From assembly GCA_001823165.1 (NCBI GenBank), contig MHTT01000008.1:1-48342 (forward strand): a stretch of DNA of 48,342 nucleotides. The letters are read 5' to 3'. Positions 39,817-39,951 of the stretch are shown here, piece by piece. Both the position numbers and the translations under genes were made by a program. Within the stretch, counting starts at the first letter, position 1. Each line of letters begins with the position of its first letter. The stretch comes from Candidatus Wildermuthbacteria bacterium RIFCSPHIGHO2_01_FULL_49_22b. Lineage in GTDB: Bacteria; Patescibacteriota; Minisyncoccia; Minisyncoccales; UBA10102. Under the pieces are notes generated by a model. That model was given only the letters and a program-made list of their open reading frames with translations, was not told the DNA's origin and did not search any database.

Positions 39817-39951
39817 AATCGCGTAAATCCCAAATATAACAAACCACAAATCACAAACAAATCACAATAACCAAAATCACAAACCAAAAACAAAAAGCGT
39901 TTGGAATTTGGTGCTTGGAATTTGTAATTTCTTTTACGAAGTAAAAGTATT
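39817..39951 (+). repeat. Family F intercistronic element (groES-groEL spacer)
   Basis: A CA-rich tract (caaatataacaaaccacaaatcacaaacaaatcacaataaccaaaatcacaaaccaaaaacaaaaa), then gcgtttggaatttggtgcttggaatttgtaatttCTTTTACgaaGTAAAAGtattATG. It is the same family, orientation and distance to the start codon as in front of rpsR. Confidence 0.8.

Follow-up and report, generated by a model that had tools for sequence, protein, structure and literature searches.

Heptanucleotide tandem repeats (STRR) were reportedly described in cyanobacteria by Mazel in 1990. The small dispersed repeats (SDR) of Nostoc, reportedly the subject of work by Elhai et al. in 2008 (Genome Res 18:1484), are said to be conserved units of 21-27 nt that occur in hairpins and tandem-heptamer contexts and have no transposase. 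CA-rich translational enhancers act without a Shine-Dalgarno (SD) sequence. TAACTGA repeats are intergenic in marine Beggiatoaceae, Cyanobacteria and Bacteroidetes, and their function is unknown (MacGregor 2015, PMC4679880). Citing Mrazek (2007), the same paper gives heptanucleotide tandem repeats as the commonest long simple repeats of many bacteria, ascribed to polymerase slippage (PMC4679880). Palindromic elements are also known. Correia/NEMIS elements (Neisseria) and ERIC elements (enterobacteria, Yersinia) form hairpins, when transcribed, that can alter the processing of operon mRNA (PMC10969869), and REP/REPIN elements are mobilised by RAYT (Y1 HUH) transposases (PMC3116915). Rickettsia palindromic elements (RPE) lie in frame in unrelated housekeeping genes, where they use one reading frame and encode a similar peptide (PMC10969869). 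Here we describe a family of hairpin elements built of 7-nt units (heptads), two copies of which fill the groES-groEL and the ssb-rpsR spacers of Candidatus Wildermuthbacteria bacterium RIFCSPHIGHO2_01_FULL_49_22b (contig MHTT01000008.1; the window analysed is this stretch of 48,342 nt).

An earlier note on this DNA had taken the two spacers for an imported leader that serves the expression of groEL and rpsR. We consider it probable that they are instead two copies of a single truncated form of a small dispersed repeat that is palindromic and non-autonomous. The evidence comes from the build of the two copies, from the same junctions in relatives and from the occurrence of the family elsewhere.

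The groES-groEL and ssb-rpsR spacers

We observed that the two spacers, which we call e1 (groES-groEL) and e2 (ssb-rpsR), were 86% alike over 116 nt (39831-39946 against 26173-26288; pair I1 of the repeat finder). They aligned end to end in MAFFT, and BLAST gave E = 3e-36. A 34-nt block at the 3' end, GCGTTTGGAATTTGGTGCTT[G/T]GAATTTGTAATTT, occurred exactly twice in the window (0 expected, from 100 shuffles). Both copies are sense to co-directional flanking genes, and each spans its spacer from stop codon to start codon. The homology and the common orientation that had been claimed for the spacers were thus borne out. The genes had also been named correctly: e1 is flanked by groES and groEL (Cpn10 and Cpn60 matches), and e2 lies in an rpsF-ssb-rpsR operon (Pfam S6 and S18 matches, and SSB).

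Copy e1 is the whole groES-groEL spacer (39817..39951, plus strand, 135 nt), a truncated heptad-palindrome element. Copy e2 is the whole ssb-rpsR spacer (26170..26292, minus strand, 123 nt) and has a truncated architecture like that of e1. The left arm of e1 (39825..39896) is made of CA-rich heptads, namely AAATNNC units followed by AAACAAATCAC and AATAACC, and runs colinear with the corresponding arms of members from other phyla (alignment A5). The aligned left arm of e2 (26223..26292) reads AAATCAC, AAATTAC, AAATTCC, AAACTAC, AAACAAATTAC, AATGACC and onward. The right arm of e1 (39897..39930) is the family core, GCGTTTGGAATTTGGTGCTTGGAATTTGTAATTT, in which the inner ~30 nt of the full right arm are missing, and the right arm of e2 (26189..26222) differs from it by one mismatch. 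The outer 13 nt of e2, AAATTACAAATTC, pair perfectly with GAATTTGTAATTT; the outer left end of e1 is degenerate. What the earlier note had missed is that its CA-rich tract forms, together with a TG-rich tract, the two arms of one long imperfect hairpin made of 7-nt units.

Behind the core stands a short tail palindrome. It reads CTTTTAC-gaa-GTAAAAG in e1 (39931..39947, 4-5 nt before the groEL ATG at 39952) and CTTTTAC-gca-GTAAAA in e2 (26173..26188, 3 nt before the rpsR ATG at 26169-26167). The palindrome (CTTTTACG.AGTAAAA) had been recognised before, but its distance to the ATG is 5 nt at groEL and 3 nt at rpsR, rather than the 5-6 nt given for both. A second hairpin is specific to e1: a perfect 11-bp stem, cgcgattttag/ctaaaatcgcg, lies over the groES stop codon (39798..39823, plus strand; -14.2 kcal/mol, z = -4.8, with none of 200 shuffles as stable). 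Its 5' arm is formed by the last groES codons and its 3' arm directly follows the stop; no T run stands behind it.

The landmarks AAACAAATNAC, AAT[G/A]ACC, AAAAGCG, the 34-nt core and the tail follow each other in a common order in e1 and e2, and the differences between the copies cluster at the variable NN positions of the heptads. In both copies the TG arm is short of the same inner ~30 nt when set against full members of the family. Since they share this right-arm deletion as well as the tail, e1 and e2 probably go back to a single derivative, of which a copy was placed at a second site. The spacers might instead have arisen in place, by slippage and inverted duplication, and become alike by convergence or gene conversion. 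The clustering of their differences at NN positions fits such an origin, as does the finding of neither a transposase nor a target-site duplication, and long heptanucleotide repeats, ascribed to polymerase slippage, are given as the commonest simple repeats of many bacteria in the account already cited (PMC4679880). We nevertheless regard a local origin as very improbable, because the non-repetitive landmarks stand in the same order in both copies, and because the architecture is seen again in distant phyla and in over 100 contigs of each metagenome, where its boundaries are sharp and shared.

We then read the orthologous junctions in seven syntenic relatives. Homologues of GroEL and SSB set the window among Parcubacteria, close to Candidatus Wildermuthbacteria, and in the nearest relatives GroEL is 85-87% identical and the gene order is kept. 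The groES-groEL junction could be read in six relatives and the ssb-rpsR junction in three, which makes nine readings. The groES-groEL junction measured 1 nt in L063 (TAGtATG) and 1, 0 and 1 nt in L070, L071 and L072. It was 44 nt, of unrelated sequence, in L064, and 102 nt in L061 (9899-10000), where a different heptad hairpin of CGACTAA/GTCGTAG units was seen (-25.8 kcal/mol). The ssb-rpsR junction measured 1 nt in L067 (TAAcATG) and 2 nt in L065 (TAGttATG), and 112 nt in L066 (10442-10553), where it consists of an unrelated GATTTATGC ladder hairpin. Junctions of 0-2 nt were thus found in six of the nine readings (groES-groEL, 0-1 nt in four of six; ssb-rpsR, 1-2 nt in two of three), and metagenome contigs supplied more orthologues of rpsR in which 1-2 nt separate the ssb stop from the ATG. 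Two other junctions that carry heptad elements in the window are also tight in relatives: in L070-L072 there is a 4-nt overlap of htpX with the Zn-ribbon gene, and in L067 rpoB overlaps rpoC.

The 0-2 nt junctions of most relatives indicate that e1 and e2 are lineage-specific insertions, and in this sense the claim that the leader was imported stood up. The simplest history, as read from these sequences, is that tight junctions are ancestral and that elements were gained at several of them in this lineage. The earlier note had also held that relatives having the same genes with ordinary SD-containing spacers, and with equal expression, would speak against its proposal. Relatives do have the same genes without the element, but their junctions are SD-less and coupled rather than SD-containing. 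As sequence evidence, these junctions weigh against a required expression signal. The relatives also show palindrome families of their own in spacers (CGACTAA heptads in L061, the ladder in L066), and two relatives of different lineages, L063 (10539-10570) and L064 (6779-6819), have the motif GAACCT..GC..AGAACCTTGATT in common.

The family in other genomes and in metagenomes

The full element is a hairpin of ~120-160 nt (copies overall span 105-160 nt). Its CA arm consists of four AAATNNC units, AAACAAATNAC, AATGACC and two or three more units. A variable loop follows, which sometimes contains another nested palindrome, and then a mirror TG arm, whose units (GNNATTT) are complementary to AAATNNC and which ends in TTTGGAATTTGGTGCTTGGAATTTGTAATTT.

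We searched a genome set with one representative for each GTDB species (596 Gb) for a 25-nt core, GGAATTTGGTGCTTNGAATTTGTAA. We observed 30 matches in ~17 genomes of several phyla, where by our own estimate ~0.004 matches would be expected by chance (24 fixed bases, 596 Gb). Nine of them were in Candidatus Buchananbacteria RIFCSPLOWO2_02_FULL_46_11b. The other hosts were Falkowbacteria, Sungbacteria, Peribacteria, several Desulfobacterales metagenome-assembled genomes (MAGs), one Bacteroidales MAG, two flavobacteria and gammaproteobacterial MAGs. Almost every match placed the core at the outer part of the 3' arm in a long hairpin whose 5' arm consists of CA heptads; at some loci (L020 and L029) the 25-mer stood solo, with no heptads beside it. 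Because the core was the query, its identity among the matches is partly a matter of ascertainment, which does not hold for the colinear left arms. A hidden Markov model (HMM) of the family, made from 12 full-length members with the window copies left out, matched e2 at E = 3e-17 and e1 at E = 2.7e-15, in both cases along the full model (e1 over model positions 3-134).

We also looked for the family among described sequences and vehicles. Rfam gave no match at the elements in a gathering-threshold scan of the window, and only spurious microRNA hairpin matches in an E-value scan of seven full-length members. The sequence strings of the element were not found in the literature searched. In viral contigs the core had no match and the tail had two chance matches. 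BLAST of the elements against plasmids and phages returned nothing, for which low-complexity masking is possibly to blame. A 20-mer spanning the core/tail junction had 20 matches in a metagenome collection that lacks the window's own locus, all of them by chance. As for a transposase or other recurrent neighbour, no protein family stood beside the element in three or more genomes (30 loci, ~8 kb each), and inspection of the flanks of e1, e2 and the GTDB copies revealed no target-site duplication, no formal search having been made.

To place the copies relative to genes, we made a crude call of open reading frames (ORFs) at the 30 GTDB loci. The core was sense to its neighbours in ~10 cases, antisense in ~7, convergent in two and divergent in one. 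In the sense cases it often ended 10-12 nt before an ATG (for example, that of rplC in a Sungbacteria locus, L025), and in the antisense cases its end lay 6-32 nt from a stop codon. Since antisense copies adjoin stop codons too, nearness to genes reflects short spacers and not direction. The directional leader of the earlier note was not borne out, as the family lies in either orientation to its neighbours; random placement was a result that the note itself had named as speaking against it.

We further estimated the copy number of the elements in the source metagenomes. The window locus was present in groundwater and soil metagenome runs. Assembled (Logan) contigs were placed on test regions, and the recruited contigs were counted per run. 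Unique flanks recruited 1 contig per run (summed depth 12-16), and so did a control region free of heptads (9380-9560, 72% AT; summed depth 12.6-14.5). The e1 core (39900-39931) recruited 128-145 contigs per run with a summed depth of 2000-3400; the e1 CA arm, whose contigs were counted with those of the core, reached a summed depth of 350-1250. For the left arm of an element inside rpoC the figures were 118-138 contigs and 4300-7000, and for the element between htpX and the Zn-ribbon gene 321-343 contigs and 8000-9700. Since the recruited contigs had sharp common boundaries and heterogeneous flanks, these elements are high-copy dispersed repeats in many genomes of the community. The assembly itself is broken at e1, where contigs stop at 39928 and begin again at 39931. 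Across different samples, ten contigs were 99.7-99.97% identical overall and 100% identical over e1; with contigs this nearly identical, the comparison of strains is silent on selection.

Folding and possible effects on expression

The main hairpins of e1 and e2 have predicted energies of -18.8 and -18.5 kcal/mol (z = -3.5 and -3.3), and the predicted folds leave ~30-45 nt of CA-rich RNA unpaired in either copy. The antisense strands reach -25.0 and -26.5 kcal/mol, yet their z-scores are like those of the sense strands; because antisense shuffles also fold more stably, no functional strand can be named. When the family alignment was folded with RNAalifold, only 10 consensus pairs came out, and there was one compensatory pair (C-G to U-A, 3 sequences). 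As the heptad register is ambiguous, column-wise covariation was defeated and no covariance model was built.

The tail hairpin was predicted at -3.6 kcal/mol in e1 (z = -1.15 against shuffles) and at -1.1 kcal/mol in e2 (z = +0.87, with an unpaired centroid structure). Judged by these models it is no structural signal, being no better than shuffled sequence. A GGAGG-type motif is indeed lacking before groEL and rpsR, as first described; this is not peculiar to the two genes, as an SD-like motif within 20 nt of the start was found for only ~5 of the 28 window genes. The idea that the terminal hairpin replaces an SD sequence was not supported, given its low stability, the general scarcity of SD motifs and the relatives that have no spacer at all. 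Many starts (for example, 4383, 13231, 22800, 24994, 36230, 41681 and 44502) are preceded at 6-11 nt by a TATAAT-like hexamer, a pattern that suggests widespread leaderless or very short-leader mRNAs in the window.

Scans of both spacers found neither an intrinsic terminator (G+C-rich stem with T run) nor an internal sigma-70 promoter (-35/-10 with 16-18 nt spacing) inside them, and e1 and e2 are therefore probably part of the operon mRNA. A candidate internal promoter, TTGGAA-N18-TAATTT or TAAAAT, was rejected: it failed the scan criteria, and its spacing to the ATG is unlike the leaderless-type pattern at other genes. A promoter-like site of groES, TTGACT-16-TAAGAT, was found at 39420-39447. 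In the same region (39420-39494), a degenerate CIRCE-like inverted repeat, TTGGCACTC-N9-GTTTGCTAA (39458-39484), lies upstream of groES and suggests HrcA-type heat-shock control of this gene.

We propose that the copies arrived at the groES-groEL and ssb-rpsR junctions in the lineage of this species. The ancestral 0-2 nt junctions imply stop/start translational coupling. Within the operon mRNA the copies would be carried passively, as an unpaired CA tract, an imperfect hairpin of roughly -18 kcal/mol and, just before the AUG, a tail hairpin of negligible strength. Their main effect would be to uncouple the downstream cistron from the upstream one. Translation of groEL and rpsR would then have to begin anew on a leader that is rich in A and C and lacks an SD, much as most genes here seem to start. 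The copies that persist would be the harmless ones, and the element would be a tolerated genomic parasite or a neutral insertion. That it serves as a dedicated signal for translation is unlikely.

Several observations count against this account. Copies e1 and e2 are both sense, are truncated alike (so that the CA tract stays single-stranded) and carry a start-proximal tail; with n = 2, this could reflect either shared descent or selection. Mobility is inferred from distribution only, as neither a transposase nor a target-site duplication nor an autonomous partner came to light. Unrelated hairpin repeats occupy the same two junctions in two relatives (L061 and L066), so a hairpin could be advantageous there. 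Finally, an e1-type tail with tatt and ATGGC occurred in at least five distinct longer contigs with the putative ATG equally spaced (runs X1-X3, X5 and X8), which hints that the 3' end of one sub-family is tied to start codons.

This last point was followed in the metagenome contigs. The core end with the tail palindrome, tatt and ATGGC(AAAA) was found in 26-33 contigs per run at at least 85-88% identity (39918/39926 to 39956-39965). These contigs carry other heptads upstream (TTAGAATTTAGAAATTA), and their downstream sequence diverges a few codons in. At the 3' end of e1, ~64% of the summed depth was held through ATGG and ~54% through ATGGCAA. In one contig from another sample the core end was followed by 8 nt and then by ATGGCAAAACAAATTCAATTCG, which is readable as a GroEL-like start. 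The e2-type tail recruited no contig besides its own.

A rival reading, which refines the idea of the earlier note, is an exapted expression module, in which an unstructured CA-rich standby or S1-binding leader and the tail/tatt/AUG block would together permit SD-independent internal initiation. Such a module would make use of the sense orientation and truncation common to e1 and e2, of the CA tract left unpaired in the predicted folds and of an SD-poor genome. It would also account for the tail+ATGGC block at at least five other loci with the same ATG spacing, and for the cores that end 10-12 nt before an ATG in several genomes, as at rplC. A published parallel is provided by the TAACTGA heptamers just upstream of starts, including those in ribosomal protein operons, in SD-poor Beggiatoaceae (PMC4679880). 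We nonetheless consider the module unlikely. The relatives whose junctions measure 0-1 or 1-2 nt do not need it, the tail hairpin is no stabler than shuffled sequence, and family members are as often antisense, with the core end then close to a stop codon. Moreover, heptad elements precede or interrupt genes that are not highly expressed, and the e2-type tail is confined to its own contig. Some small weight is kept for the module because the recurrence of tail+ATGGC is the main point that our preferred account leaves unexplained.

A role in mRNA processing or stability appears more doubtful still. In this reading RNase III-type cleavage would occur at the hairpin, or the hairpin would block RNase J or 3' exonucleases, so that the operon mRNA is split and its two cistrons differ in half-life. 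The hairpins of both elements and the one at the groES stop are stabler than their shuffles, and the copies are probably transcribed. A gene for RNase J lies within the window, unrelated hairpins stand at the same junctions in two relatives, and Correia and ERIC elements provide precedents (PMC10969869). The helices are, however, interrupted and short, with at most 6-13 bp in a continuous run, and so would be poor substrates for RNase III; no strand preference in folding remains once composition is corrected for. Most relatives are without a spacer, and no RNase III was seen in the window. Taking the evidence together, the passive insertion of a dispersed repeat remains our preferred explanation for both spacers.

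Other repeats of the window and comparison with known systems

When we examined the window for self-similarity at period 7, we observed nine regions comprising 411 nt, and none at periods 5, 6 or 8. The period-7 score was 0.56 for the ssb/rpsR spacer and 0.52 for groES/groEL, followed by 0.50 for htpX/Zn-ribbon, 0.46 for rpoB/rpoC and a weaker 0.42 for comF/dprA. The htpX/Zn-ribbon spacer is filled by e3 (43188..43303, plus strand), a diverged relative of e1 and e2 with AATTNTC heptads followed by AATGACC (HMM E = 0.003). Its hairpin has -20.8 kcal/mol (z = -2.7), and it is the most abundant element in the metagenomes. The rpoB-rpoC spacer (18998..19125, plus strand; family D5) contains three copies of the palindrome CTAAATCCGATTTAG and then AGAATTT heptads. 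The comF-dprA spacer (5970..6031, plus strand) has heptad-like units and the landmark CAATGACC, and its predicted hairpin is weak.

A further group, family B, was found inside genes. Its members are ladder hairpins of 5-bp helices every 7 nt. One copy lies in frame in rpoC (22094..22177, plus strand; -18.4 kcal/mol, z = -3.8), where it encodes TIDNLQLTIDKKNSRQKSKVKSQES. A second lies in frame in uvrA (36960..37036, plus strand), encodes a 25-residue peptide and is 90% identical to the rpoC copy. A third, in frame in uvrC (34585..34664, minus strand; -19.1 kcal/mol, z = -3.3), encodes TIGNSQLTIDSKKSQSSKVKGQKS. The three copies are 80-90% alike and share one orientation and one reading frame relative to the gene, with peptides of the form TIDN[LS]QLTI..KK..QKS. 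The insert is absent from the UvrA of two relatives (L061 and L063), and absent or different in the RpoC and UvrC of relatives. Another heptad hairpin, made of TTGTATC/GATACAA units, is in frame in uvrC (35336..35431, minus strand; -26.8 kcal/mol, z = -6.7), and the UvrC of relatives differs where it lies.

The presence of family B inside rpoC, uvrA and uvrC implies that heptad elements insert wherever they are tolerated. The link to highly expressed cistrons that had been drawn from groEL and rpsR does not hold, since elements also occur at htpX/Zn-ribbon, comF/dprA and rpoB/rpoC, and inside rpoC, uvrA and uvrC.

The window also holds repeats and mobile features of other kinds. A GC-rich palindrome, GAGTAGGGTCAGACCCTACTC, occurs in doublets inside dprA (6724-6776) and uvrA (38118-38170) and forms one more family of palindromic repeats that read in frame. 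An ORF for an IS200-like Y1 transposase (4383-5099; RAYT-like, Pfam PF01797, E = 1.7e-5) has the palindrome CTAAATCCGATTTAG on both sides (4289-4313 and 5094-5138). The same palindrome stands three times at 18995-19084, an arrangement that resembles REP/RAYT. A PaaX/Cas2-like gene (PF20803; ORF 28147-28707) lies between 43-nt inverted repeats (28099-28141 and 28700-28742, 84% complementary), and gene and repeats may form a small mobile cassette. A 24-nt palindrome, ATGTGTGAAACCTGGTTTCACACA, stands behind a TPR protein gene (15563-15586) and behind lemA (42248-42271); these two unrelated genes may share it as a terminator, or it may be one more REP-like repeat. A direct repeat of 261 nt (87%; 8645-8905 and 10730-10990) includes a perfect palindrome of 33 nt, TAGGCGAGACCAAGGATTCCTTGGTCTCGCCTA. 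Close to the end of the window, a group I intron (Rfam RF00028, 92.5 bits, 47740-47950) splits the anticodon loop of a tRNA (~47715-48010) that was missed by ARAGORN; by eye, its exons look like tRNA-Thr.

For annotation, the case is one in which a shared leader before two highly expressed genes mimics a regulatory module and is best read as the colonisation, by a repeat, of the few permissive sites of a compact genome. The check that exposed the repeat, a look at the orthologous junctions in relatives, is a cheap one. The family of hairpins of 7-nt units is abundant, is shared by these groundwater bacteria and several unrelated phyla, and is absent from Rfam and from the literature searched. 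Such elements lengthen coupled junctions of 0-2 nt to spacers exceeding 100 nt, extend loops of RpoC and UvrA by 14-26 residues, and break metagenome assemblies.

Like the Correia and ERIC elements, which are miniature transposable elements with inverted repeats (MITEs), the heptad elements are small (about 100-150 bp), non-coding, palindromic, present in many copies, mostly intergenic, and present or absent between relatives. Three features by which MITEs are recognised were found here: many copies (two or three in the window itself), terminal inverted repeats (the whole element is an imperfect palindrome) and presence or absence at orthologous sites. Neither a target-site duplication (by inspection only) nor a partner insertion sequence (in ~8 kb per locus) was seen. 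The heptad elements also differ from Correia and ERIC in their heptad-built arms and in a far wider spread among phyla.

With REPINs they share the form of hairpin-forming inverted doublets of ~100 nt, extragenic and in high copy, and the window encodes a Y1_Tnp-like protein. As the Y1_Tnp-like gene is flanked by CTAAATCCGATTTAG and not by heptad arms, a REPIN/RAYT link is not seen for the heptad family. Family B, with its copies in rpoC, uvrA and uvrC, resembles RPE in its in-frame behaviour and in its absence from orthologues. It differs in its unrelated sequence, its host phylum and its heptad ladder, and e1 and e2 are intergenic. The CA-rich, unstructured tract upstream of an SD-less start is reminiscent of CA-rich enhancers, but here this tract is the arm of a repeat, it is absent from relatives, and its family is non-directional. 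The solo 25-mers reportedly have a likeness in the Nostoc SDR, whose hosts are different ones.

The closest likeness in unit length is to STRR and TAACTGA. In both cases a 7-nt unit is mostly intergenic, often ends a few nt before starts and is found in SD-poor hosts. TAACTGA copies lie inside ribosomal protein operons, for instance before the gene for L3, as does the Sungbacteria copy (L025) here. Common to both is also a patchy spread across phyla, which suggests horizontal transfer and has no known mechanism, and the occasional copy in frame within an ORF. The differences lie in the build and in the hosts. The units here are degenerate (AAATNNC) and interrupted by fixed landmarks, in place of one exact heptamer; they form two complementary hairpin arms with conserved landmarks and a conserved terminal block of 25-31 nt; and the hosts are candidate phyla radiation (CPR)/Patescibacteria, Desulfobacterota and Bacteroidota. 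The heptad family thus lacks at least one defining feature of each of the MITE, REPIN and STRR classes. There is a small chance that it represents an undescribed class of small mobile DNA, one that crosses phyla (CPR, Desulfobacterota, Bacteroidota and Gammaproteobacteria) with no linked transposase, colonises junctions and, in frame, essential genes such as rpoC and uvrA, and in one sub-family may carry a portable start-site cassette. Such a cassette, made of the tail palindrome, tatt and ATGGC, would give SD-independent initiation to whichever gene it came to precede. The mechanism of its spread, if found, would bear on how heptanucleotide repeats such as STRR and TAACTGA move between lineages.

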